Assembly (NCBI GenBank): GCA_012862495.1
Contig: BLSG01000162.1
Coordinates: 115,789 to 179,788, forward strand
Reading direction: 5' to 3'
DNA: 64,000 nucleotides
DNA from: Thraustochytrium aureum
Lineage: Eukaryota
This document shows positions 2,150-46,003 of the stretch, in pieces; the first letter of the stretch is position 1, and every line of letters begins with the position of its first letter. Under the pieces are notes generated by a model, which was not told the origin of the DNA, searched no databases, and worked only from the letters and a program-made list of their open reading frames with translations. The position numbers were made by a program, and so were the translations under genes.

Positions 2150-4308
2150 CTACTTGCGCTGGGCCCAGTAGTCGCGCAGGGAGGTGCCCGAAGCGGCGAG
2201 GTCGGCGAGCAGCTTGCTGGGCTGGAACTGCCAGCCCGGCAACTCCGGCGAGCGCTCCAAGTGCTTGCGCAGGGCCTCGGCAACGGCCGGCAGACCGACA
2301 ACCTGGTCGGCGTAAAACATGGGAGGGCTGTAGCGCGGAGCGCCGTATCCGGCGCCCCAGCAGACGTCAATGTCGGAAGGGCGGCTCGCGATGCCCTCCT
2401 CGAGAATGCGCATGCCCTCGTTGACCATGGGGTACAGGCATCGCTCGAGTATCTCCTGGTCGGAGATGGCGTCGGCGCGCGCGGCGACGCCGTGCTTGGC
2501 ACGGTGGTCCTCGCAGAGCTGCGCCACGACGGCATCTTCAACGGGCTTGCGGCCGTCGTACGTGTACCAGCCGGCGCCGGTCTTTTGGCCGAGGCGACCG
2601 GCGTCAACGAGAGCGTCGGCGAGAGCCATCCAGGTGGCGCCGCGGCGGCCCTGGACGTTCTCGGGCGTGTGCGGGAAGTACGACTCGCGGCGGATCCGGT
2701 ATCCGATGTCGTTGCCAGCGAGGTCTAGAACCGCGAGGGGGCCCATGGCAAAGCCAAAGTTGTAGAGCACCCTGTCGATCTGCGAGGGGGAGGCGCCCTC
2801 CTCGAGGAGGCAGACGGCCTGCTGCACGTAGGGCTCGAACATGCGGTTGCCGATGAAACCAAAGCAGTTGCCGGCGAGCACGGTGGTCTTGCCAATGGTC
2901 TTGCCCATTTTCATCGCCGTGGCGATGGCGGCAGCGCCAGTGTGCGTCCCGCGCACGTTTTCGAGGAGCGGCATGACGTTTGCCGGGGAGAAAAAGTGCG
3001 TCCCGATGAGCATCTCGGGCCGGCCGCTGGCCGCGCCGATGACGTCCACATCCAGGTATGACGTGTTGGTGCAGAGGAGCGTCTCGTCCTTGCAGACCTT
3101 GCCGAGGCGCGAGAAAATGTCCTTCTTCAGGTCCATGTTTTCGAAGACGGCCTCGATGACGGCGTCGCAGCCCTTGAGCGCGCCAAAGTCGGCGTCGAGC
3201 GAGCCGGAGAAGAGGCCCATGCGCTGGTCGAGGTCGCTCTCTGTCATCTTGCCCGAGCGAAAGGCGGAGGACTTTTGGTAGAGGCCCTTGATGGCGCCTT
3301 TGCAGGCGTCGAGTGCTTCTTGCGAGGTCTCGGAGAGGGTGACGGGGATGCCGCGGTTCATAAAGCACATGGCGATTCCGCGGCCCATGGTTCCGCCGCC
3401 GATGACGCCAACGCTCTCGATAGGGCGCGCGGCCTTGGCGTCGACGCCAGGCACCTTGGAGCACTCGCGCTCGGCGAAAAACATGTACTGCATCGCCTTG
3501 GCCTGGTTGCCCGCCATGAGGCCCTCGAAGAGCTCTGCCTCCACCTGGAGGCCGGCCGCGAAGGAGGGCGCCTTTTCCGCGCCGGCCACGGCGTCCACGA
3601 TGCGCTGCGGGGCCAGCTGGCCGCGAGCGCGCTTGGCGAGCGTGGCCTTTGCCTGCTCGTAGACGCTCGGGTCGGCGGGGATGACCTTGCGGGCCGAGAT
3701 GCGCGGCAGGCGCGCGGCGTCCGGGACGGCGAGTACGGTCTCGTGGACAAACTTGAGCGCGCCTTCGAGGAGCTCATCTGGCGTCTTGCCATCCACCAGG
3801 GCGTCGACGAGGCCCATCTTGTTCGCCGCGGCGCGGGCACGGGGCGGCCGCTGGTCATCATGTCGATGGCCGCCTCGACACCAACGACGCGCGGGAGGCG
3901 CTGTGTGCCGCCAGCGCCGGGCAGGATCCCCAGGTGGACCTCTGGGAGGCCAAGGCGCGCGCTCGGGAGTGCGACGCGGTAGTGGCAGGCGAGCGCGGTC
4001 TCCAGGCCGCCGCCCAGGGCGGTGCCGTGGATGGCGGCCACGAGCGGGATACCCGACTCGTCAAACTCGCGAATAACCTGGTTGAGGTCAGGCTCATCGC
4101 GCCACGCCCCAGTCGCAAACTCTGTGATGTCCGCTCCCGCCGGAAACGTGGCGCCATCGCCCATCACGACGACGGCCTTGGCACCGTCGGCCTTGGCCTG
4201 CTTGAGCCCCATCAAGAGCCCATTTCGCACGGCCTTGGAGAGCCCATTCACGGGTGGGTTGAGCGCGCTTACGACCGCGACGCCGTTCTTCAACGCGTAC
4301 TTTGACAT
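2150..4308 (-). CDS. Bifunctional enoyl-CoA hydratase/3-hydroxyacyl-CoA dehydrogenase (EHHADH/MFE1-like), one frameshift near 3830
   Basis: Crotonase motifs (NPPVNGL, FPAGADI, ALGGGLE, GLPEVHLGILPGAGGTQRLPR) in ORF 3358-4470 continue into the HADH motifs (VIGGGTMGRGIA, EAVFE, NTS, THFFSPAN, GFIGNRM) of ORF 2150-3817. Confidence 0.92.
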
Positions 4309-5244
4309 TCTCGCGTCTGCCTTTCGCGCGCGCGTCCGTCCCAAGCACTCTCTCCGCGGCTGCTCTGCGCGCCCTGGTTGCTGTTCTGGAGTCGCCGTCC
4401 TGTGCGTCTTCAAGTTCGTGCAGTGGTTGGGAGGATCGGACCTAAGTACTTGAGAGAAGAAGAGACACATTCATCGAGTACCAGCCAGTGCGAACGATGT
4501 GCTCGACGACATCCGGGCAAGTCGAGGAATGGGGTCGCGCGGCCTCGTCCGGGATCACNNNNNNNNNNNNNNNNNNNNNNNNNNNNNNNNNNNNNNNNNN
4601 NNNNNNNNNNNNNNNNNNNNNNNNNNNNNNNNNNNNNNNNNNNNNNNNNNNNNNNNNNNNNNNNNNNNNNNNNNNNNNNNNNNNNNNNNNNNNNNNNNNN
4701 NNNNNNNNNNNNNNNNNNNNNNNNNNNNNNNNNNNNNNNNNNNNNNNNNNNNNNNNNNNNNNNNNNNNNNNNNNNNNNNNNNNNNNNNNNNNNNNGCCCA
4801 GGGCAAGCAGGGCTGCGAGCACGGGTCTCGTTTGACCCTGTGAGCTCGTGGCCTCGTGGCCGTGCGCGCTCGCGCGTATTTGGGCTTTGTCAACACGACT
4901 TGATCAAGACGCGCTTGCTCGTTTCGCTCGAACTCAGGAGCGCCGCTAGAGCAAGAGGTCGAGCCCAAGCAAGAGCCGCAATGCTTCGAGGCTCTCGAGG
5001 CACTCTCTTTTTTTTCTTCTTTCTGGATTTGGTTGGGGTCGCGCCTGCTCGTCGTGAATGCCAGCGCTGTGGAAAATGGCGAAATGGCCTTTCGGGCGTG
5101 CGGCCTTCGCGCACGGCCGTGGCGCAGGTTGCCGCGTGGAGTAGTTTGCGTATCTCTAGAGTTAGTCTGGTTGTTGTGCGAACATGGGAATTGATTTGAT
5201 TTTGCTTCTCGAGATCTTGGAGCAGCGCTTTGGAGTGAGTGGAG

Positions 5245-19167: not shown

Positions 19168-21255
19168 CTACTTGTGGTGTGGTCGCAGGTTGCCTTGCAT
19201 GTGGAAGTCCACAAAGCACGTCACTGCACGTTTCTTGACACGCGAGATGTGTAGGGCAACGCCGCAGTCCTCGCACTTGTACGCTGACTGGCCCTCGCAC
19301 ACTACGCAAGTGGATTGCCGGGCCACAGTGGCTACCACACCCTCGGCAGAGATGCTTTGGCGTTGGCCAACGGGAACTGGATTGTGCTTGAAATTCTTTG
19401 AGAGGCGAAGACGTTTGGCATCGCCCTCGTCAAACTGCTTTCGAAGGCTGCTGATGGACCTCTTCGAGCTTTTGCGCACCTTGGCGGCATCTGCTTCGGA
19501 AACAAAACCTTCCATCGGCGCGCTGGGCACGGAAGGCAGTACTCCTGTCGTCGATTTCTCAACGATGCCCGCGGAATCGCTGTGCTCTACCAGGGTCGTC
19601 GATTTCTCAACGATGCCCGCGGAATCGCTGTGCTCTACCAGGGTCGTCGATTTCTCAACGATGCCCGCGGAATCGCTGTGCTCTATCAGGGTCGTCGATT
19701 TCTCAATGATGCCCGCGGAACCGCTGTGCTCTATCAGGGACAGTGCGAGCTCCCTTGCAAACTCGGTGGCCGAGATTATCTTGTTGCACTTGTTCCTGAA
19801 CGAACTGAGTTTGGCGAACGGGAATTGAAACGCCCCATCGTCGTTTGTGCACGCTTTGATGATGCGATACAAGATGAACGCATTGCTCGCAAGCTGTCGA
19901 ATGCCACGGAACGCCAAAAGTTGCTTCAGCCCGAACTTGAGTGTTGCTGGGGTCGTGAGCGCAGCACCAAACTGAGTGTGACCGTCCAACCCGCCTTTCA
20001 GCGCGTTGTATGCAGCCTGGGAGTAAGACTTGAAAACGTGCACTGGATGGAGTGGCCCAGTTCGGCGAATCAGTTTGCGTAGCGCCCGCCACAAGCGCAA
20101 GTGTGAGGTCAACCGCTCGCAAACGGTCGCACCAAAAATGGAGGGGGGGCTTGGCGGGGACTGATTCGCGGTTGTACTTTGCCCCGAGCCGCTGTCAGCG
20201 GCCGCGTCCGCTTGCTCGCCGTGACCAACACTGGCGTGCGCCCAACCGAGAAGCGGCTCAAATTGAACAAGCGCGGCTTTGAACGCTTCGCGCGCAGATG
20301 ACGGCACGGTTACCAGGCAAGCGTATACTAGCTCGGTAGTGCTTCCTTCGACGTAAACGACGAGTTCCACGTCAAGCACCATGGCTTGGTGCAAAACTTG
20401 TCCACGACGCTCAGATGGAACTGCATCCCACCAACCGTCGTCGCCGACAGTGCAAGCGAAATATCTGCCCCTCTGCTGCGCGACAGACCGTGCCCTAGCG
20501 AGTGGCGTCGGTGCCGACCGTGTCTTGAACTCGACACTCGCGAGGGCCGCCTCGACTTGTGGACCCGCATTCGGCGGGACAACCATGGCCACAGCGTCAC
20601 ACGAAACCGCTAGGTAGGGTTGGGACTCTCGAGCAAGGAGACCGACGTGGTAGATCTCGTGGCACCACGTCGAGCGCTGGAGCACCTTGAAAAGGTTGTC
20701 TTCATTGATGGTGTCGCTCTTCATCATTTGAGTGGACAGCCCGCGTGCAAAAAGCCATGACCTGGCAAGGATTTCTGCGCCCATTTCCAGCAACTCCGCG
20801 TTGCTAGTACCCCTCATCTGTGTCAAGCCCACCGCTGGTACAGAGGCGCTCGTGTTGTCATCTGTGCCGCTTCTTGCCTCGACTCCTTCAGCTCCGCTCT
20901 CAGGAAACGCAACGCTGCCCTCGTCGACGCTCTCGGCATCACTTTCGGCTGCACTGCTGTCNNNNNNNNNNNNNNNNNNNNNNNNNNNNNNNNNNNNNNN
21001 NNNNNNNNNNNNNNNNNNNNNNNNNNNNNNNNNNNNNNNNNNNNNNNNNNNNNNNNNNNNNNNNNNNNNNNNNNNNNNNNNNNNNNNNNNNNNNNNNNNN
21101 NNNNNNNNNNNNNNNNNNNNNNNNNNNNNNNNNNNNNNNNNNNNNNNNNNNNNNNNNNNNNNNNNNNNNNNNNNNNNNNNNNNNNNNNNNNNNNNNNNNN
21201 NNNNNNNNNNNNNNNNNNNNNNNNNNNNNNNNNNNNNNNNNNNNNNNNNNNNNNN

Positions 21256-21286
<31 letters not shown>

Positions 21287-23166
21287 TCGTCGCCGCCTCC
21301 ATTTGTGCTGCGGCTGCGAACCAGCTGCGCGATTGTGCTTCTGCTGAGCTGGTCGCTGGAGATCTCGCCTGGAAGCGCCGCATCGAGGCCGCCTTGCGCC
21401 CGGTTTGTGACGGAAGGCCCGCGCACAAGCAGCGCTCGCGCTTGTGGATCCAGACGTGCCAACCGGCCGCTCGCCGTTCCCGTGACGCAAAAAAGGCGAG
21501 CAACAAACCAGTCAGCCGAGCGCTGCCAGCAAGTGATTGGGAGAACACCTTGCTCGCGGAGCTTGCTCTCGACCTTGCGGAGCTCTGCACTCTTCCGATC
21601 GCACGGGAAAAACAAAACGACCTTGGCCGGTTTGATGCTCTCTGGAATCGCCTTTTGGTCGAAGCAGACCGTCCGCATAATCTCGTCGCTGATGGCCGTT
21701 CCAGACTCGAGAAAACGCACAACGTTGCCGCCCTTGGCTGCTTCCCTGGCCTGATAATCCCGAAACGCAAGGGCGTGCACCACCTTGCTGGTGTCCCCCA
21801 CGCGGACAGTCGCACGTGCGGCGAAGAGCTCCCTGCCGAGCTGCGGGTCGTCACCAACCACAAAGCCCGCTTCGACAGGGACGTTTACTTTCTCCGCCCG
21901 CGCAATGACGTTTTCAACCGTGTCTACGAGAGGGCCTGGGCTGACATTCAACCTCTTCTCCGTTGCAACCACTTTTTGGAGAAGCTCTGAGAGCGGCACG
22001 AACGGGTGCCAAGCCTTCTTCACAGTCGTGATGAAGCTTACCTCTTTTTCAGTCAGCGCAGACCAAAAACGGTCCTTGCTGTACCCGTTGTCTCCGGTTC
22101 CAATAGTGCCACGGATCCGCCCACCAACACCATCGATCTTGTCCATGTCCTCGAGCAACTCGTCAACAGCGCAGTCTTGGATGTAGTTGAGGCGCTCTTG
22201 GTGCCGCACTGCATACGTAATACGCAGCAGCGAGTCGGTCACCGCGTCATTCTTCGTCCCGTCCTTGCCTGCTTTGCGGTGGCTCACGGCTCGCTTTTGG
22301 ACCTCTTCGGAGCGAGGCCCAACCAGCTCGTCATCCACAACGAACTGGAGTGAATGCGACAAGGTCAGGCGACGAGTTGACTCAAAAAGCACCCGCTCAA
22401 ACGTGCGGACATTCGCGATGGTGTCCTCAGTTTGACCAAAGCGGTCGCCCGCGGCGGCTTCGGTGGCAGGATCTGTCGCTTTGGTGCATCTGATGATGGC
22501 GTGGTAGCGCTCCACGCTGGGAATCTTGGCCGAGGCACGCCCAACAATCTTGGCGATGTCAGGAAGGAGGTTCTCGCTGGAGGTGTTGTACACTTGATGC
22601 ATCAAGTACGACCCAACAAAGCCGAGCATCTCGCCAAAGTCCAACGCATCCCTTTCCGCCCCAAACATCTCCTCGCGAAGGCGCTGGTTTGTCCAGGACA
22701 TCATCGTCTCTAGAAAGCGACGGGCCAGGACCATGAAGACGTGGAACGGGGAGAGCTTGCTCACATCATCTTTCAACAGGCAAAACTCTGCCTGGCAGCC
22801 ATGAATGACTTGCTCGAAAATGTCCTCGCACTGGCTTTGGAGACGCGGCACGAAGAGCTTGTCGATCGCGTCGCCCTGGGACATGAGCTCATATTCGTCA
22901 GGCTCCGCGCGCCTCTCCCAGCGCAGCGACTTGGTCCTGAGTGTCGCTGTCGGGGCGTTTGGCGCGCTGCCCAGTGCGTCGCGCTCTGCCTCGACCCCAC
23001 CGGGCCCTTGGACGTTCTGCCTGTGGAGTGGGCATTTTCTACTGTTTGAACGTCTGTGGTCTGTCCTTCCGCACTTCTTGCAGGCCTCCGCGCGTGCCCT
23101 TGGCGGAGCGGCTTTTGACGGAGCCCGCGAGCTGCGAACGTCGCTCTCCAGCCCCGCACGCTCCAT
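19168..23166 (-). CDS. piggyBac-like DDD transposase with inserted YqaJ/lambda-exonuclease-like domain, N-terminal CxxC-H-C knuckle and C-terminal Cys-rich domain (gap at 20962-21255)
   Basis: VVDDELVG (D1), GDNGYS (D2), YNALKGGLD (D3). Between D2 and D3: WQRSADWFVARLFCVTGT, GLLARESQPYLAVSCDAV, VEFKTR, GQVLHQ. C-terminus CVVC...KCEDCGVALH...CFVDFH. Confidence 0.8.
19547..19738 (-). repeat. 48-bp coding tandem repeat x4 (LVEHSDSAGIVEKSTT) in the transposase ORF
   Basis: Near-identical units starting at 19547, 19595, 19643 and 19691. Confidence 0.92.
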
Positions 23167-31411: not shown

Positions 31412-31984
31412 TTAGGCTTCGACCGGGAACTCGAACACGACATCTACGGACGTGAGCTTTTTGTACACGGTCGCAAAGGTGTCGAGCTTGGTCTCCGCGG
31501 TGGTCAGGTCACGGGTGTGCAGGAAGACCTTGAGGATCTTGGAGCCGTCCGCGCGGTACCGGGTGCGCTTGCCGACAATCTCCGTCGGGTAGACAAGGTC
31601 GTCGAGGATGGCCTCGCGAACAGCGGTGAGGGTGCGGCTGCGCGGGCGGACGCCCTGGGTCTTGGTGCTGCGGTTGTACGACTTGCCGTAGATGGTGCGG
31701 TGGCCGATCACGACGACATGGCGGCCCTGGAGCTTCTTCTCGAGCTCGCGCACCAACCGAACCTGCACCTTGCGGAAGGCATTGAGCAGCTTGTACGGCA
31801 CCATGATGATGACGGCCTTCTTGCCCCCGGGGGTGGACACCTCGCGTGCGCCCAGAATGTAGAGGTTCTCCAGGTCATTCTTCAGCTCGGGCGTGCCCTC
31901 GAGCTTGTAAATCTCCTCGGCCACCTTGAGCTCAAACTCATCCGCCTCCTTGCCCGCAGGCTTGACAATCTTCGTCGACGCCAT
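31412..31984 (-). CDS. RPS7: 40S ribosomal protein S7 (eS7)
   Basis: KVQVRLVRELEKKL.GRHVV, RPRSRTLTAV, ILDDLVYPTEIVGKR, VYKKLT...VVFEFP; 190 aa. Confidence 0.97.
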   Translation of the reverse strand: MASTKIVKPAGKEADEFELKVAEEIYKLEGTPELKNDLENLYILGAREVSTPGGKKAVIIMVPYKLLNAFRKVQVRLVRELEKKLQGRHVVVIGHRTIYGKSYNRSTKTQGVRPRSRTLTAVREAILDDLVYPTEIVGKRTRYRADGSKILKVFLHTRDLTTAETKLDTFATVYKKLTSVDVVFEFPVEA

Positions 31985-32296: not shown

Positions 32297-32334
32297 TGCG
32301 TCATGGTGACGCAGGGGGACGAGGGTGACGTCAC
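32297..32334. promoter_or_regulatory. Cluster of TGACG (ATF/CRE-like) sites in the divergent RPS7/bZIP intergenic region
   Basis: TGCGTCA-TGG-TGACGCA (32297-32313) and the perfect palindrome GTGACGTCAC (32325-32334). Confidence 0.35.
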
Positions 32335-32935
32335 TGCGTCGGCGTTACTCGGGGAATCGTACGGGGACACCTTGTGCCTTTGGGCGAGGTTGTGCCGAGA
32401 ATTGCGCTGTCTGGTATGAGAGATTGGAGGGAACGGACGCGGCTGACCCGACGGGGCGGGTGGCACCGTGATACAGGACACCGGTTTCGCGCCGGACGTG
32501 CCATGACACGCTGGCATCCCGGCCCAGCAGTGACCGGAGCTTTAAGCCCAACGCGCGGAAACGCCTCCTCCGACTGCATTCTCCTTTCCCGCTGTCTTTA
32601 TTCTTAAGGCGCGCGGGTGGGCCGCCGAGCTCACTCGCCTCAACCGCTGCACCGCTGCTTGACTTAACGCAGTGCGGCGGGTTCCTCACCCACCGCCCTG
32701 TCTGCGCGGGCGGCGCGGTTTGCGGGAGGGGACAGCGCGCGGGAGGACTCAAGAAGGCGCGGCAGACCCCGAACGGAGTCCAGTGCGGACAGTTGCTTCC
32801 TCTCGAGCAGACCAGAAAAAGAAAAGCGAACGAAAGTCGGAGCCTCAGGAGACAGCGAAGACACGGCAAGGGCAGGACGCGTGGCGTGATCGAGTGCCCG
32901 GCCGGCCGGTCGCGGTCGTGGAGAAGGAAAACAGG

Positions 32936-34012
32936 ATGGCGTCCGTGAAAAGGCGGTTTTCCACCTCGGATGCCTCCCCGGTGACCCTGCCCATGTCGCC
33001 GGCGTCGTCGGCGGATGAGTCGGACGCGGGCAGCTCGCAAGGGTCGCCGAAACGGTCCAAAGGCGAAGACGCCGGCGAGCGGCAGAGCAAGCTGATGGCG
33101 AGGAAGATTGCCAATAGGCAGGCTGCCGAGCGGAGCAGGCAGAGGAAGATTAGGAGGTTCAAGGGAGCTCGAGGTGGAGAACGGCGCGATGAAGGCGGAG
33201 ACGCGACGATGAAGGCTGCGCTGGCCGCGCTTGAAGGCGAGCGGGACCAGGCGCGGGCTGAGGCGGAGAGAATGCGCGCCGAGCTGGAGCGGCTCCGTGC
33301 GCAGCTCGCCGCGAAAGCAGAGCTTGCCGTCGAGCAGTTTGACGCTGACCACTCGCCTGGGCCCCTCGACGCGCCCGCTTCGCCGCTGTCGGATGCGGCG
33401 CTTGCTGATCTCTTTCAAGAGGACGTGTTCACGAGCGTGGGAGACGTGGACGCCGTGGAGGACGGGCCAGGCGTCGGCGGCAAGGAGCACGCGTACGCCG
33501 ATTCAAGTCTGTGCGATGTTGTGGACCTGGACTTTCTTGGCGCGCTGGTCGAGCAGGAGGAACTGAAGACTGCTTTCCCTGCAGTGGAAAGTCGATTGCG
33601 CTGCCTCTCGCTGGTGTTGCCGCTAATGGCCACCACGTTGAGGCAGCTCATCAAGCCTCAGCAGCAGGACTGTTCTAACTGCTCGACTACGCTCAAGCCC
33701 CGAGTCCTCGTCCGCGACCTTGTACACTTGTTTCTGACCCGATCCGCCCTTGTTGCGCTCGCCAGCCCGTTGGCTCTGCTGTCTTCGTATGTAGTTGGCA
33801 ACCAAACTGACTTTATCTTTCATCTTGACAATGCGTGCCTCCGCGGCGAGCCAGAGCCCCGCGCGGTTGATCGTGCTCCGCACGGCCGGCCGGGTCGAGC
33901 CACCGTCCGTCCTTCGAGCCCACGCCAGGCAGCGCCGTGCTTGCCTGCCCGACTCGGGCTCGCGGCAAGCCGCCAAGGCGAGCGTGGCTCCCTCGAGCCA
34001 GCGAGAGCTTGA
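32936..34012 (+). CDS. bZIP transcription factor, HAC1/XBP1/bZIP60-like (unspliced form; the predicted spliced form ends at 33678)
   Basis: Basic region RKIANRQAAERSRQRK. Leucine zipper KELEVENGAMKAENATMKAAL is restored by two compensating 1-nt indels near 33163-33202. Hydrophobic C-terminal segment follows the IRE1-type hairpins. Confidence 0.82.
   Translation: MASVKRRFSTSDASPVTLPMSPASSADESDAGSSQGSPKRSKGEDAGERQSKLMARKIANRQAAERSRQRKIRRFKGARGGERRDEGGDATMKAALAALEGERDQARAEAERMRAELERLRAQLAAKAELAVEQFDADHSPGPLDAPASPLSDAALADLFQEDVFTSVGDVDAVEDGPGVGGKEHAYADSSLCDVVDLDFLGALVEQEELKTAFPAVESRLRCLSLVLPLMATTLRQLIKPQQQDCSNCSTTLKPRVLVRDLVHLFLTRSALVALASPLALLSSYVVGNQTDFIFHLDNACLRGEPEPRAVDRAPHGRPGRATVRPSSPRQAAPCLPARLGLAASRQGERGSLEPARA
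33582..33661 (+). other. Putative IRE1-dependent non-spliceosomal intron (80 nt)
   Basis: Stem-loops CTTTCC-[CTG|CAGT]-GGAAAG and AGCCT-[CAG|CAGC]-AGGACT with 7-nt CNGCAGN loops. Confidence 0.65.
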
Positions 34013-34372
34013 GAGAGCTTGGGCTGGCTGGCCCGTGTGAGGGTCAGTTGTCCTGTACCACTTGAGCAAGAGCACGGCACCGCGAAAAGCGACGAGTTGC
34101 AAGTCGGAAAATTAGTGTTCTGTTGTGTCTTCGTTTCCATGTTTCAAGTGTCAAGGTGCCTCGACAACGTCTTGTTGTTTCTGTTGATCAAGACGTTTGT
34201 TAGTTTCCGTTCCGCTTCCGTTCTTTTGCAACTTGCCCGCGTGGCCCCCTCGCGAGCGGTCATCTTGTCGTCTTTGTCGTTGGAACCGTGGCGCTCAGTC
34301 GAGTGCAGTGTCCAAGAACCACGCATCTGCTGCGCACCGGCTCGGCTTGTCGTTTCCCATGGCCAAGTCCGA

Positions 34373-37101
34373 CTACTTGAAAGACATCGACAGAGATTGG
34401 ATCTTGATGCATTGCCGCACCTGATGGGGATTGAATTCGGCCCCTCGGGCCACAGCGCCCCCCAGGCCATGGAAGCAGCACTTGGCAATGTCCTTCGCCT
34501 TGGCGATCGGGCCCGGGACGCATGGATTCGACAACTGCGGAACGCTCTCCACAGACACTCTGTAGCCAAGAGCAGCGAGCTGCGCAACCCAAATCCCCAC
34601 GGCCCGCTCGGCCCCGACGACGCGTTTGAGCTTGCCTCGGTGCGCATTCAAGGCGACCAAAGCACTGCGGGAGAGGACAAACGCCGAGCCCTCCATCGGA
34701 TGCGCCGGCAACAGCGCGTTCTGCGAGCTGATTGCATCGCCCTCGTCCCGAGTCTTGTCCGGGATGTCATCAAGGACGTTGCCGAGCAGTTGAACTGGCG
34801 CGTTTACCCCAACCTGCGTCAAGGGGGCTGACACGGTCTGGAGGAAGCGCTGCATCGCCGGCATGTCGAGCACGGTTCCGTCGTGCATGGACACGACCCA
34901 CTCAGGGGCGAGCGTTTCGTGGGCCCACACAAGCGCGCCTTTGAGCTTGGCGTCATCGTTCCAGTGCGTGTCGACGACGTCCAGGATCAAGAGGTCGCCG
35001 AACTCTGCGGCCTCGAGGCGGATCTCGGTTTGGATCCTGCGCTCGCGATCGGCGTAGCTCGCTAGATACAGCGGCACGTTGTGCGTGAGATTCTGCGCCT
35101 TGGGGTCCATGGCGCACGACGCCTTACTGTCGCGCAAGATGGGGGGGTACATGCACCACTGGCTGCCCACCACGGAGACGATCGACGCGTGTCCTGCGCC
35201 CCACGACTCNNNNNNNNNNNNNNNNNNNNNNNNNNNNNNNNNNNNNNNNNNNNNNNNNNNNNNNNNNNNNNNNNNNNNNNNNNNNNNNNNNNNNNNNNNN
35301 NNNNNNNNNNNNNNNNNNNNNNNNNNNNNNNNNNNNNNNNNNNNNNNNNNNNNNNNNNNNNNNNNNNNNNNNNNNNNNNNNNNNNNNNNNNNNNNNNNNN
35401 NNNNNNNNNNNNNNNNNNNNNNNNNNNNNNNNNNNNNNNNNNNNNNNNNNNNNNNNNNNNNNNNNNNNNNNNNNNNNNNNNNNNNNNNNNNNNNNNNNNN
35501 NNNNNNNNNNNNNNNNNNNNNNNNNNNNNNNNNNNNNNNNNNNNNNNNNNNNNNNNNNNNNNNNNNNNNNNNNNNNNNNNNNNNNNNNNNNNNNNNNNNN
35601 NNNNNNNNNNNNNNNNNNNNNNNNNNNNNNNNACGCCGCCAGGCGCGCTGTTTGTTTGGTCGAGCGCCAAGTGGGACGCGTCTTGGCCCGAAGCGACCTG
35701 AGCGTTGCTGGTTAATTTTCCTGGAATCGCGAGCTCGGCGGTGAGCTTGCCTGCTTCGTTGTATTCGTCGGCCATGGCCTTGCGCTCCAGCGCTTCCTTT
35801 GCCAGCTTCTTGTCCTCCAGCAAGGCCTTCTTTCCGGCCGGGCCGATCAAGTGCTTGTAGATGAACGGCTCAGCGCGGAACGGGTCTGAGGTGGGAGCCA
35901 GCGTCGGCTTGTTCGTCGGCGGCGCGCTCGGCGCTACGGGAAGGTGCTCGAGGTGCCACGTGCAGTTGACGATGTCACTTGCGCTGTACTTGTGGCTGAA
36001 CACGAACCGCGTCGGAGTCCGGTCTCGGAGGCAGCACTCCAAGCCGCACTTCCAGTGGAAGCGAAACCGTTCGTCCTCGTCCCACCAAACGCTGAGGCCG
36101 AGCGCCTTGGCCCAGAGCGCCAGCGCAGCATCCTCGCACCGGTACACCTTGAGCCCTTCCTTGTGGGCTACGATTTCGCGGATCAGGCCGCCAGAGACGA
36201 CATAGCCGGCGGCGCCCTGCGCGTACCACGGGTAAATGTCGGATTCGTTGTACTGCAGCTCGGCCCACTTGCCGACCTTCTCCACGGGTGTAAACCACTC
36301 GATGTCGCCGAGGACGCGGTACCCGGAGGAGGGCAGCGTCATGACGTGCTCGCGAAGCGCGTCGAGCCGAACGACCGAGTCGTCGTCGATTTTCATCACC
36401 CACGACATGGGAAAGTTCTCCGCGGCCCACGTGAACGAGGCCAACGTTTTAGCGGCGAGGTTGCCGTACGAGTCCATCACGTCCAGGATTAGCAGGTCGG
36501 GGTGAGCGGCGCGCTCTTGGCGAAGCCTGCGCGAGACCAGCCGCTCCATCTCGTTGTGTCTCCTAAAGTCCAAATCGGTGCGGTTCGTCTGCTTGAGCAA
36601 GCAAGGCCCATAGTCGGACTGCATTTCGCTGGGGTATTCGCAGTGCCGCGCCCCCACGACGAAAAAAACGTACGGCTGGTCTTTGGCCCACGACCTCCGA
36701 ATGGCGTCGCGCGCCTCAAAGTTGTTCCGCGCGCTCATGACCATGACCAACAGGGGCGGATCTCCGAACACGGAGATGGTCGGTGCGATGGTTGGGGCCA
36801 CGACTACCTCCTCCAGTGCGCGCATCCTCTGCCACGTGGCGAACGACTCGCTGATGCCGCTGCGCACCGAGTGTCCGTGGCCTCTTGTCCCGAGCATCGA
36901 GCTGGACAAGCCGAGCATGGCCACCACGGCAATCGCGAGCAGCACGAGGCCGGTCTTGGCCACGCGTATTGGCGTGCTGCTCAGCGCCTCGGCCGTGCTC
37001 CGCGCCAGCGACGCCGCCGACCCGGACGACCTCGGCGACTGCGTCGGGGTGGACCTCGGCGACCTTCCGGTCTGCACATCTACCCAGCGTTGTCCCGCCA
37101 T
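34373..37101 (-). CDS. Type II membrane GT31 (beta-1,3-galactosyltransferase-like) protein, apparently with two tandem GT31 domains across a gap
   Basis: TM anchor, MSARNNFEARDAIRRSW, DSYGNLAAKT, WVMKIDDDSVV, YAQGAAGYVVS, EDAALALW; second copy DLLILDVVDTHWNDDAKL...GSAFVLS...ERAVGIWV. Confidence 0.8.
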
Positions 37102-38921: not shown

Positions 38922-41900
38922 TCACGGCTCCGCGAAGCCTCGATGTGAAGCCACGGGCTCCATGCCCGGTGTGCGCTCTGAGGCTTGACGCACGAGCGCC
39001 CCGAGCCGCCGCCGTGACAAAGACCCCGACGCGACCGCCCGATCAGCCTCGCTTGCGCCAATAGTGAGCGTCAGGTCGTCGCTGGCGCCGCCGCCGCGCT
39101 CTGAGGCGCCGAAATCGCGCTGCTCCATGCGGTCCGCTTCTCCACGGCACCGGTCCTCCTCGCGAAGCAGGCGCATGCTCGAGGGGTAAAGCAGCTTGGG
39201 AAACCCAAACAGGACGTAGTCGAGCACCACGCCCGTGACTGCGGCGAGCATGGCGCGCGACCAGACAAACGGCGCCGTCGGACCCGTGAAAGACAAGGCC
39301 ACGCCCGCACCGTCCAGCACCGGCACGACATCGCAAACCCAAACGCCGAGCAAAACCAGACCGGCGCAGGCTGCAAAGCAGACCAGGACGAAGAGGTTCA
39401 CCGTAACGGTGAGCACAGCCTGCCGCGCGAAGAGCAAAACGACAACCGAGACGAACACGGCCGCACCGAGGCCATCGAGCGAGACCGTGGCGGGCGCGCT
39501 GTAAAAGCGAGGCAGATCACGAGCGCGGCGTGCAGAGTGGCGCGGAGGCACATCTTTAGGATGCTGCGGCCGTCCAGGTAGTGATTGTCGCGGCCGACGA
39601 CGTAGGCCTGCGGGTGGGCAAGCGCCGTCTCCCGCGAAATGTCCGCCTGGAACCAGGCTATCGCCGTGATCACGCTGTTGGTGACCCAGGCGAACAGGGT
39701 CACGTAGTAGGTGTTGACGTAAATGCTCTGCCCCGATACCATGCTGTAAAACACGTACACGAACACCATGTAGATCAGCACCAGCCACGAGTACGAGACG
39801 TACTTGACAAGCATCGCGTTACGCTGGTAGTTCCACCGCCCGTGCACGAACAAGAGCGCCCGCAGAAACTTGAACCGCGCGATGCTAAAGTCGCTGCTGT
39901 TCACCGCCTGCAAGCCCTCGTGCCCGCTAATCCCAACGCCCACCCGCGCCTCCTGGATCATCGCAACGTCGTTGGCCCCGTCGCCGATCGCCAACGTCAC
40001 CGGCTCGCGGTGCCGCCGCCCCGCGCCCGCGTGCTCCACCATCTCGACCATCAGTGCCTTTTGCTTGGGGCTCACGCGGCAGGCCAAGACCACCGAGCAC
40101 ATCGCAGCAAGCTCGAGGAGCAGCCCCTGCGTCTTTGCCGACCCCTCTTCGGCCTGCAGCAACTGCTTGAGCGCCCGGCCCGAGATCACCAGCGCGATCT
40201 TGCTGGCCAGGAGGTCAGCCGCAGCGGTGCCCGCGCTGCCGCCAACGCCAACAGAGTCCTTTGCGAGGCCCGAAGCGAGGTCGTCAAGCGAGGAGACGAC
40301 CCCGGAGAGCTGCGACACCAGGTCGCTGCGCGAACCCTCGTCGATCAGGACGCGCGACATGCTCGCGTCGAGAATGCGCGCAGAGAGCGCAATGTTGATC
40401 GCGGTCTGGATCTTATCCCCGGTCAGCACCCAGAGCTTGATGCCCGCGTCTCGGATCATCTTGACCGTCTCTGCCACTTGCTCTTGCAGCGCGTCCTCGA
40501 TCCCCGTTACCCCGTACACGTCAAAGTCGCGCTCAACAAGCATGGCAGCACGCTCTTCCGCCGTGCTGCGCTCGCGACCAATCTTGCGCTGCGCTGCCTC
40601 GTGCGCCTTGCGCCACTCCTCTACCAGCGCAGGCTCGAGCTCGCGCCCGCCCACCACGAGCGTGCGCAGCCCGCACATCGAGAAGCGCGACAGGTGCTGG
40701 TCCGTCTCGGATCCCGCTCCGTTCGAGCACAGCTCGAAGATCACATTGTCCGCACCCTTGATGAGCGTCCACACCTTGCCAGAATCGAGGTCCTCTGCAA
40801 CGACGGACATTCGCTTCCGCGCGCTGGTGAACTTGTTCACCCCCAGCACGCGATAACGCTTCGGCAGGCCACCACCACTCGCTTGAGATTGAGCGGCGGC
40901 GCCGCCATCATCGTCATCGCCCGAGCTGCCGCCTGGAANNNNNNNNNNNNNNNNNNNNNNNNNNNNNNNNNNNNNNNNNNNNNNNNNNNNNNNNNNNNNN
41001 NNNNNNNNNNNNNNNNNNNNNNNNNNNNNNNNNNNNNNNNNNNNNNNNNNNNNNNNNNNNNNNNNNNNNNNNNNNNNNNNNNNNNNNNNNNNNNNNNNNN
41101 NNNNNNNNNNNNNNNNNNNNNNNNNNNNNNNNNNNNNNNNNNNNNNNNNNNNNNNNNNNNNNNNNNNNNNNNNNNNNNNNNNNNNNNNNNNNNNNNNNNN
41201 NNNNNNNNNNNNNNNNNNNNNNNNNNNNNNNNNNNNNNNNNNNNNNNNNNNNNNNNNNNNNNNNNNNNNNNNNNNNNNNNNNNNNNNNNNNNNNNNNNNN
41301 NNNNNNNNNNNNNNNNNNNNNNNNNNNNNNNNNNNNNNNNNNNNGCCAGCGAGGTCCCCGAGCAGCTCTTCTGCCGGCAGCTTTGGCGGCTCGAGCGCGC
41401 CCGCCGCCAAGGCCTCGGCCCCCTCGCGCGGTTCGGCGTCCTGGCTGACGTCTGGCGGCTGCCACCCGTACAGACGGCCCTTGACCGAGCAGCTCACCAG
41501 CCGCATTTCGTTGTTCGTGAGCGTGCCAGTCTTGTCGGTGAACACGTGCGTGACCTGGCCAACCTCAGCCACGAGCGAGCCCGTGCGGCACACGGCCGGT
41601 GTATCCGAGCGCGGGTCGTACATTTCGAGGTCCCAGCTTACGTAGAGGCCCTGCACGTAGTTGACGATTTCGAGGCAGACGTACATGTTGATCGGGATCA
41701 TGCTGGCAAAGGTGCCTGAAAAGGTGAAGAAATAGGCCAGCCACCCCGGCAGCACAAACTCGTTCACAACGTCGAGGCCGCGAAAGTACCAAAGCGTCTG
41801 CGTGTCGGGCACCCAAAAGATAAGCAAGAGCACGGCCAGAACGACCACCAACAGGTACACCAACAGGAGGTAGCCCATCATGCGGTTCACGGCAGAGTCC

Positions 41901-42653
41901 AGCCGCGAAAATTTGGAGGGCGTAGAGCTGCTCGAGAGGACCAGCTTGGTCTCGGGGCCCGCGTACACCACGATCCCATCCACCCAGGCCGTGTTCCGGA
42001 GCTGGCTGCCGCGCAAGAGCAGCGAGGAGAAACCTACGCCGACCTCGGCGCGCGACGGGCTCTCGACCACTAGATTACCGCTGAACTGCAGATAAGCGTT
42101 CGGCTCCTCGCACCGGAGCCGCCCCTGCAGCGCCCCCGACGAGGCCCCAAGGGCGCGCAGGTCGCTTGGGACCTGGCGGATCTTTAGGTTGGTCTCGCCG
42201 TCTATCCCGCTCGTCTCGATGTAGCAGAGCCCCGACGCTGCGGACGAGCCTACCAGCAGCATATCGGCCGGGACCAGCTCGCCTTTGCAAACGCGGATCA
42301 CGTCGCCTTGAAGCAGCTCGCCCCACGTCGTGTGCTCGATGTGGCCGCTGGGGTGCGCCACGAGCCGCGCGGGCTTGCGGTTTGTATGCTGGTCGGCGCG
42401 GTGCCTCTCGAGGTCGTCCTTGCCCTCGAACACGAGCGTGACGGCGATCACGCACACCAGGATCGCCAGGGTCCCCCACGGCACGTAGCTCACGATGTAC
42501 AAGCTAGGGTAGAAAAACCCCACCGAGTTGACGACGCAGACCGCCAAGAAGAACGCGTTCGAAAACCTCCTGAACTGCAACAGTGTTGCGAGGACCATAA
42601 AGTTCCACCACGTGTACTTGCACGTGCTCACGGCGTTGGTCACCGCACTGGAA
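38922..42653 (-). CDS. P4-type ATPase (phospholipid flippase); 5' end in gap, internal gap, frameshift near 39505
   Basis: NAVSTCKYTWWNF, DGETNLK, DKTGTLTNNEM, KGAD, LWVLTGDK, CRVSPKQKA, AIGDGANDVAMIQEARVGVGISGHEGLQA, LLFVHGRWNY. Confidence 0.93.
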
Positions 42654-45050: not shown

Positions 45051-46003
45051 CCGTCCTTGCGCTGTACGGCTGCGTGGTGCGTCTCGCGTGGTTGGAGCTC
45101 TGCCGCGCCTCCATCCGTTCCGTTNNNNNNNNNNNNNNNNNNNNNNNNNNNNNNNNNNNNNNNNNNNNNNNNNNNNNNNNNNNNNNNNNNNNNNNNNNNN
45201 NNNNNNNNNNNNNNNNNNNNNNNNNNNNNNNNNNNNNNNNNNNNNNNNNNNNNNNNNNNNNNNNNNNNNNNNNNNNNNNNNNNNNNNNNNNNNNNNNNNN
45301 NNNNNNNNNNNNNNNNNNNNNNNNNNNNNNNNNNNNNNNNNNNNNNNNNNNNNNNNNNNNNNNNNNNNNNNNNNNNNNNNNNNNNNNNNNNNNNNNNNNN
45401 NNNNNNNNNNNNNNNNNNNNNNNNNNNNNNNNNNNNNNNNNNNNNNNNNNNNNNNNNNNNNNNNNNNNNNNNNNNNNNNNNNNNNNNNNNNNNNNNNNNN
45501 NNNNNNNNNNNNNNNNNNNNNCTCGCTTCGGGCTCACGTCGGCACTTGCGCTGAGCGCCCCAGCACTGGAGCTCGCCACGATGAGCCAGAACGTACCGGT
45601 ACTTCGTCGAGTACTGTACAAGAGTACTCTGATCATCTCATCTTGATGATTGGCCGAGTTGCGGCTGGTTGAGCTGCAGCTCTGCCGGCAGGGCGCCGCG
45701 AACAATGCTTGATCGTCGTCGTGCAGCTCGCCGTTCCTTGCTGCTGTGCGAGGAACGCCTGCGTTCGCCAGCCCTCCGGTCCTTGGCTCGGAGCACGGTC
45801 GGCGTTGCGACGCGCTTCCGTGTGAGCTTACTGAGCCTTACTTGGCTCGCGCGGAACATGGTTGTTCCAGCGGGTTGGGTTGGCAGATCTCGCGCAGACC
45901 CCGAACGCTCGCATCAACAAGCTCGACGCAAGACAGCCAGCTCCCAGTAATTCCAAAGCGCAGACTTGACTCGGAGGGATTGGCCCTCCGCAGAGCAGGG
46001 GCG

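Follow-up and report, generated by a model that had tools for sequence, protein, structure and literature searches.

Targets of mRNA splicing by IRE1 have been documented for animals and fungi as well as for plants and green algae. XBP1, HAC1 and bZIP60 are the ones named in a 2026 review (PMC13149111), the plant and green-algal targets are listed in a 2024 paper (PMC11077094), and a second review from 2026 cites bZIP1 of Chlamydomonas, where the pathway governs lipid remodelling (PMC13545648). The RNA substrate in XBP1 consists of a long, bulged exon-exon stem (S1), two arms presenting 7-mer loops with a G at the third position (G3), and a zipper (ES1) that leaves behind a loop which IRE1 cannot recut (Peschek et al., PMC4687415). 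The same loop motif, CxGxxG, recurs in yeasts, animals and plants (PMC11077094). For Dictyostelium, the IRE1 splicing target was unidentified as of 2018 (PMC6025073). An IRE1-spliced mRNA in any stramenopile was not found in the open-access literature, among the matches listed; the terms for IRE1 or the UPR that were looked up are absent from PMC3019232 and PMC13235166, and the available excerpt of PMC9902392 mentions the plant pathway generically only. Heterokont bZIP proteins have been found to cluster with HAC1 and ATF6 (PMC4736632). 

Here we describe a bZIP gene located in a 64,000-nt stretch of DNA, hereafter the window, from an apparent thraustochytrid (Table 1). In our assessment, this gene probably encodes the IRE1-spliced UPR transcription factor of the organism. 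Five features of sequence and predicted structure make its transcript a strong candidate for membership among the IRE1-spliced UPR bZIP mRNAs, and it is likely an added member of the XBP1/bZIP60/HAC1 kind, in a lineage for which we found no described case.

Table 1. Features of the candidate bZIP switch and its divergent neighbour; positions count from the first nucleotide of the window.
Feature	Position	Strand	Description
Unspliced ORF	32936..34012	+	358 aa + stop; Ser-rich N-terminus, bZIP, acidic region, splice region, hydrophobic tail
bZIP domain	33077..33295	+	Basic region N60-x7-R68-x9-L78; zipper heptads L, M, M, L, A, M, L with read-supported indels
Two compensating assembly errors	33163..33200	+	Extra base at 33163; base missing behind 33200; 4/4 runs, 2 studies
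Acidic region, residues 131-216	33326..33583	+	20 D/E and 2 K/R of 86; common to both forms
Exon-exon stem S1, 5' arm (predicted)	33521..33563	+	Core 33548-33556 is the perfect 9-bp complement of 33679-33687
ES1-like zipper (predicted)	33570..33667	+	33570-33574 with 33663-33667 after intron removal; junction in 8-nt loop
Hairpin 1 (predicted 5' splice site)	33572..33592	+	7-nt loop 33579-33585 CTGCAGT; predicted cut after G33581
Predicted unconventional intron	33582..33661	+	80 nt (3n+2); no equivalent register has GT-AG ends; removal predicted
Intron-internal stem-loop (predicted)	33600..33647	+	Stem 33600-33607/33640-33647; fourth junction arm; probability 0.99-1.0, four energy sets
Hairpin 2 (predicted 3' splice site)	33654..33671	+	7-nt loop 33659-33665 CAGCAGC; predicted cut after G33661; weak stem
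Exon-exon stem S1, 3' arm (predicted)	33672..33715	+	Pairs with 33521-33563
Stop of predicted spliced frame	33676..33678	+	220 aa; AGLF (217-220) in place of residues 217-358
Hydrophobic segment, residues 262-288	33719..33799	+	In unspliced tail; 19-residue Kyte-Doolittle maximum 1.70; central proline
RPS7, divergent neighbour	31412..31984	-	Pfam S7e E=4.5e-70; outside the switch

The locus resembles metazoan XBP1, a substrate of IRE1alpha and RTCB built from the elements S1-S2-S3 and ES1, in its G3 7-mer loops, its predicted S1 and ES1 helices, the 3n+2 length of the intervening segment and a hydrophobic region in the part of the protein that splicing would replace (PMC4687415, PMC11077094). 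Unlike in XBP1, where 26 nt are removed, the intron predicted here comprises 80 nt with a stem of its own and creates a four-way junction, and the spliced frame adds 4 residues, whereas that of XBP1 adds a long activation domain. With bZIP60 of plants, bZIP50 of rice, bZIP7 of Marchantia and bZIP1 of Chlamydomonas the candidate shares a splicing step, predicted in its case, that takes away a C-terminal hydrophobic or transmembrane segment while the activating parts lie upstream; here as there, a stem flanks the two CxGxxG loops (PMC4891664, PMC11077094). About 96 residues separate the start of the hydrophobic segment from the C-terminus, as in the non-stalling algal orthologues, which need no ribosome stall (PMC11077094). 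The intron of bZIP60, by contrast, measures 23 nt; moreover, the new C-terminus is almost nil in our case, the organism belongs to another supergroup and sequence homology is not detectable. Fungal HAC1/HacA mRNAs likewise carry an unconventional intron with twin loops, which varies between 19 and 848 nt in fungi (PMC6222058), and fungal bZIPs are the closest Atlas neighbours of our protein (see below). An earlier reading, made from the sequence alone, had described an intron of intermediate length with a structure of its own: the structure is upheld by prediction, but a length of 80 nt is unremarkable beside the fungal range. Splicing of yeast HAC1 differs in that it adds an activation domain. 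Furthermore, whereas the yeast HAC1 intron pairs with the 5' UTR to block translation, the intron is predicted here to pair with itself, with a probability of 1.0 in a 1-kb fold starting from 32800.

The sequence-only reading had started from two 7-nt loops of the type CNG|CAGN, and these are present at the positions it gave, as verified string by string. Both loops carry a G at position 3 of the 7-mer and match CxGxxG. Loop 1 is closed by six Watson-Crick pairs (seven counting a G-U), a stem length that is reached by 2 of the 683 CNGCNGN 7-mers on the + strand. In loop 2, three closing pairs (seen at 14 of the 683) are followed by a bulge and two further pairs, and its sequence, CAG|CAGC, is one base off the metazoan consensus C(C/U)G|CAGC. 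Translation across the proposed junction confirmed that removal of the 80 nt between the two G3 positions yields a protein ending in FPAAGLF, 220 aa in length as compared to 358 aa, in which a 142-residue tail with the hydrophobic segment is swapped for four residues. The segment begins with CA and ends with AG; sliding it to the equivalent registers gives AG..GC, GT..CA and TG..AG, none of which has the GT-AG ends of a spliceosomal intron. Introns with GT-AG ends starting from 33584 would measure 78, 81 or 84 nt, would stay in frame and are without read support.

As assembled, the bZIP ORF has about 13 zipper codons out of frame. The contigs of all four runs covering this part, which derive from two studies, show one base fewer at 33163 and one more behind 33200. 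The frame break in the zipper is two assembly errors that cancel each other out, and the bZIP domain is intact. Since these codons are garbled, the whole ORF as assembled matched no Pfam family; the basic region alone hit Pfam bZIP_1 with E=0.0043 and 17.6 bits, which is under the cut-off of 27.6 for a query that does not include the zipper. When residues 40-300 were compared with the ESM Atlas, the top three clusters (0.92, 0.92 and 0.91) were fungal bZIPs, one of which carries the name X-box-binding protein 1, a lead only because 4-10 of 100 shuffled control proteins reach 0.9 as well. No Atlas match was obtained with the unspliced tail alone, and the C-terminal 70 residues of the 358-aa ORF matched no Pfam family. 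The acidic region, retained in both forms, is likely the activation domain. The hydrophobic segment is the sole strongly hydrophobic stretch of the 358-aa protein and is present in the unspliced tail only, in agreement with the earlier statement that it is lost through the frameshift. Gene finders would report the inactive form alone, and in the present assembly they would overlook the bZIP altogether.

RNA folding was predicted at 37 C with four energy sets, i.e. Turner 2004, Turner 1999, Andronescu 2007 and Langdon 2018. The folding check that the sequence-only reading had proposed gave -74.4 kcal for 33540-33695 (z -4.37, equalled by 0/200 shuffles) and brought to light the enclosing stem S1, which that reading had overlooked. 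S1 encloses both hairpins and is predicted to extend to 36 pairs with bulges; its core has a predicted probability of 1.0 in six of six contexts up to 1 kb and with all four energy sets. The fold-back of the intron on itself, already pointed out before, is likewise predicted with each of them (Table 1). For the spliced RNA, the four sets agree in predicting that S1 is retained, that a new ES1 helix of 5 pairs forms and that the junction comes to lie in a loop that is not a 7-mer. As to the two cut-site hairpins, pairing probabilities in the order of the energy sets given above are 0.08, 0.34, 0.72 and 0.42 for hairpin 1 and 0.07, 0.07, 0.31 and 0.06 for hairpin 2, and the form in which both loops are open costs 3.1, 3.4, 0.5 and 2.1 kcal relative to the minimum. 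Pre-zipped ES1 is a competing fold under two energy sets. Thus, the hairpins can form as claimed, but they do not belong to the dominant predicted fold, and the cleavable form with both loops open is not the ground state in these models. Partly zipped conformers are predicted for human XBP1 too, yet the open form predominates in probing (PMC4687415). Rfam returned two unrelated matches only for 33300-33900, both far under the gathering score, in a search with E up to 10, and 0 matches for the whole 64-kb window at the gathering threshold.

How often such an arrangement would be expected by chance was assessed by recoding and shuffling. Among 1500 synonymous recodings, only 2 reached a fold as stable (z -3.18). 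Loop 1 is imposed by Pro-Ala-Val and was present in 20000/20000 recodings; loop 2 was kept in 9781/20000 and the 9-bp flanking helix in 2504/20000, while all five features were retained in 3/20000. Taken individually, CNGCNGN 7-mers are common (683 per strand of the window), and shuffled windows contain 2.4 twin-loop pairs on average as compared to 3 pairs in the real window, among which only the pair in the bZIP gene has a 9-bp flanking helix. Twin loops with summed stems of at least 9 occurred in 56/300 shuffled windows, twin loops with a 9-bp flanking exon-exon helix in 2/300 and twin loops satisfying both in 0/300; these rarity figures, like those from recoding, are overstated because the thresholds were chosen after the locus was seen, and the location within a bZIP gene is no part of them. 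In a scan with 156-nt windows, the bZIP locus ranked second of 612, the scan covering the + strand up to 56081 with 12 shuffles each on a grid anchored on the locus. The best of the 612 windows (45630) falls into a stretch beside an N gap (45600-45800; z -4.35, 0/200 shuffles), for which Rfam gave no match.

Sequence variants were inspected within 33521-33715. All five variants listed leave both loops and both hairpin stems untouched. Of these, one is located in the terminal loop of the intron, and two shift the register of the outer stem. Another replaces Glu by Gly and leaves its S1 pair in place as G-U, and the fifth disrupts a G-U pair; a compensatory double change was not present among the five. 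With 2 of 9 SNPs inside the structure and 1.8 expected, SNP depletion is not seen.

To return to splicing itself, the sequence-only reading had called for read data across the junction. Four runs bridge the region: X1 (contig 33006-33811, depth 103), X2 (33451-33775, depth 447), X3 (33527-33775, depth 124) and X4 (33499-33743, depth 2.2); in X5 the intron is uncovered. X1-X3 come from one study and are presumed to be RNA, whereas X4 contains 0.06 of the search words and amounts to a single 247-nt contig, whose 3 differences are possibly errors. The junction created by the 80-nt deletion was found in 0/4 bridging runs, each of which shows one continuous unspliced contig over both sites; these are assembled contigs, which lose rare forms, with no stress treatment on record. 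The joint tables were empty at 5% and at 1% among the pieces listed. These data show that the unspliced form is dominant in the bridging runs, as expected at rest; splicing is neither supported nor excluded by them. The earlier proposal that the gene encodes the UPR factor of its lineage has a stronger structural case than was noted at the time, through S1, ES1, the intact bZIP and the HAC1/XBP1-like Atlas neighbours, and splicing is its predicted step. Jointly, the X1-X3 contigs span about 32790-33811 and do not cover the stretch separating RPS7 from the bZIP gene, as would be the case for RNA. They stop near 33811-33835, and there is no coverage at 33836-34050. Should this be the mRNA end, it would fit a 150-nt 3' UTR after the stop of the spliced frame, and the unspliced frame would then lack a stop codon; the observation comes from a single study, contigs do not reveal mRNA ends, and we give this consideration no weight. 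Behind 33775 (33776-33835), X2 and X3 carry a diverged allele with an apparent 3-nt deletion inside the hydrophobic segment, read by eye at loose contig ends, which would keep the unspliced frame.

For cleavage, ligation, localisation and the role in the UPR, we infer the following scenario. In unstressed cells, the 358-aa form would be made and, by analogy with XBP1u and bZIP60u, the segment 262-288 would tether the protein to the ER membrane, and the mRNA too during translation. Cuts by IRE1 behind G33581 and G33661 would follow upon ER stress, at two sites that the intron's own hairpin, by shortening the 80 nt, would have placed next to each other in a four-way junction. S1 would hold the exons together and ES1 would zip them, the intron would be ejected and a tRNA ligase would join the exons. 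The resulting 220-aa product would keep the bZIP and the acidic region and lose the anchor. Because of this composition, the switch would consist in release from the membrane rather than in the gain of an activation domain. A more specific version, which we put forward as a tentative and rather doubtful proposal, is that the IRE1-bZIP switch of thraustochytrids is characterized by a four-way junction and a self-folding 80-nt intron, that splicing does nothing but free the factor from its membrane tail, and that both cut sites stay concealed in a pre-zipped conformer as long as the RNA is not remodelled.

Other explanations for these observations have to be weighed. The protein may be a membrane-tethered bZIP of the ATF6/CREB3/bZIP28 type that is freed by proteolysis, in which case the mRNA would never be spliced and the RNA stem would serve otherwise. 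A hydrophobic segment that follows the bZIP and has a proline at its centre would suit such a protein, as helix breakers occur in site-2 protease substrates, and unspliced contigs alone were observed. RxxL motifs, the site-1 protease type, are present and too short to be counted. Heterokont bZIPs group with OASIS-ATF6 as well as with HAC1 (PMC4736632). However, the hydrophobicity is borderline (1.70), the C-terminal 70 residues lack a Pfam family, and proteolysis gives no reason for the placing of two G3 7-mer loops right at the junction of the 36-pair stem, nor for their combination with an ES1 zipper and a distance that shifts the frame. We regard this explanation as unlikely. Quite unlikely, in our view, is also that the stem represents another cis-element, acting in translational pausing, mRNA stability or localisation, or is partly due to chance, with the loops as by-products of codons. 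Indeed, loop 1 follows from the protein sequence, loop 2 is frequent, both are closed in the dominant predicted folds, and the stretch at 45630 folds better still. This reasoning meets the rarity of the combination (3/20000 recodings, 0/300 shuffled windows) and its position within a bZIP gene, where the known IRE1 introns sit; moreover, pre-zipped alternative conformers are predicted for human XBP1 as well (PMC4687415).

Finally, IRE1 may cut the stronger hairpin 1 only, making the mRNA a substrate for decay (RIDD) or for a single cut. The 3 contiguous pairs of hairpin 2, its predicted probabilities of 0.06-0.31 and the lack of a spliced contig in the bridging runs would all agree with this, but the purpose of S1 and ES1 is to keep two exon ends in place for ligation, in decay they would be without function, and loop 2 is a near match to the metazoan consensus. 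We consider a single cut very unlikely. Splicing by IRE1 remains our preferred reading. If it is true, IRE1 targets would extend to a heterotrophic stramenopile, the range of the oldest UPR branch would become wider and the age of this branch could be put to the test. In addition, the locus could be used as an RT-PCR marker of ER stress and as a handle on secretion and lipid yield. Thraustochytrids are genetically tractable producers of oil and DHA, and it is for this reason, together with the control of lipid remodelling by the pathway in Chlamydomonas, that lipid yield comes into view.

Relatives of the gene were searched for in several ways. Orthologues were not found with the whole ORF against 5.8 billion proteins, with residues 37-76 (the basic region), with a 256-aa piece against 1.84 billion representatives or in metagenome, viral and prokaryote contigs, blanks that are weak because the queries had a garbled zipper or comprised the basic region alone. 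An exact look-up of three window proteins gave no match, and a PDB search with the basic region gave one match that is not significant (E=4.1). Genes for IRE1 or an RtcB/Trl1 ligase were absent from the window ORFs scanned. The divergently oriented RPS7 gene was used for synteny: among the matches listed, a bZIP motif was present in 0/5 loci, including the labyrinthulomycete-like contigs L001 and L002. RPS7 is 85% and 84% identical to two MMETSP proteins, 76% to the protein of Hondaea fermentalgiana, the best named match, and ~65% to oomycete proteins. This similarity and the long unbroken ORFs of the window fit a thraustochytrid, that is a stramenopile, the assignment being one of similarity and not of a tree. 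L001 (6937-7506) and L002 (10001-10570) are metagenome contigs with a GC content of 40% and an intronless RPS7 gene that is 69% identical to that of the window; they probably stem from another labyrinthulomycete, and their gene neighbours differ from those in the window.

Between RPS7 and the bZIP gene lies the palindrome TGACGTCA (32326-32333), the only copy in the window (0.68 expected by chance), which we take to be a CRE-type bZIP site. Autoregulation by the bZIP protein is a possible, weakly indicated meaning of this palindrome. Regarding the window at large, the assembly contains indel errors and 18 N gaps, and some genes are apparently split over frames, namely a P-type ATPase (39401-42598) and a hydroxyacyl-CoA dehydrogenase (2153-4470). 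On the - strand, transposase-like ORFs occupy 19171-23166 (weak DDE_Tnp_1_7, E=0.0065), and directly downstream of the bZIP gene two tandem galactosyltransferase-like ORFs flank an N gap at 34376-37101.
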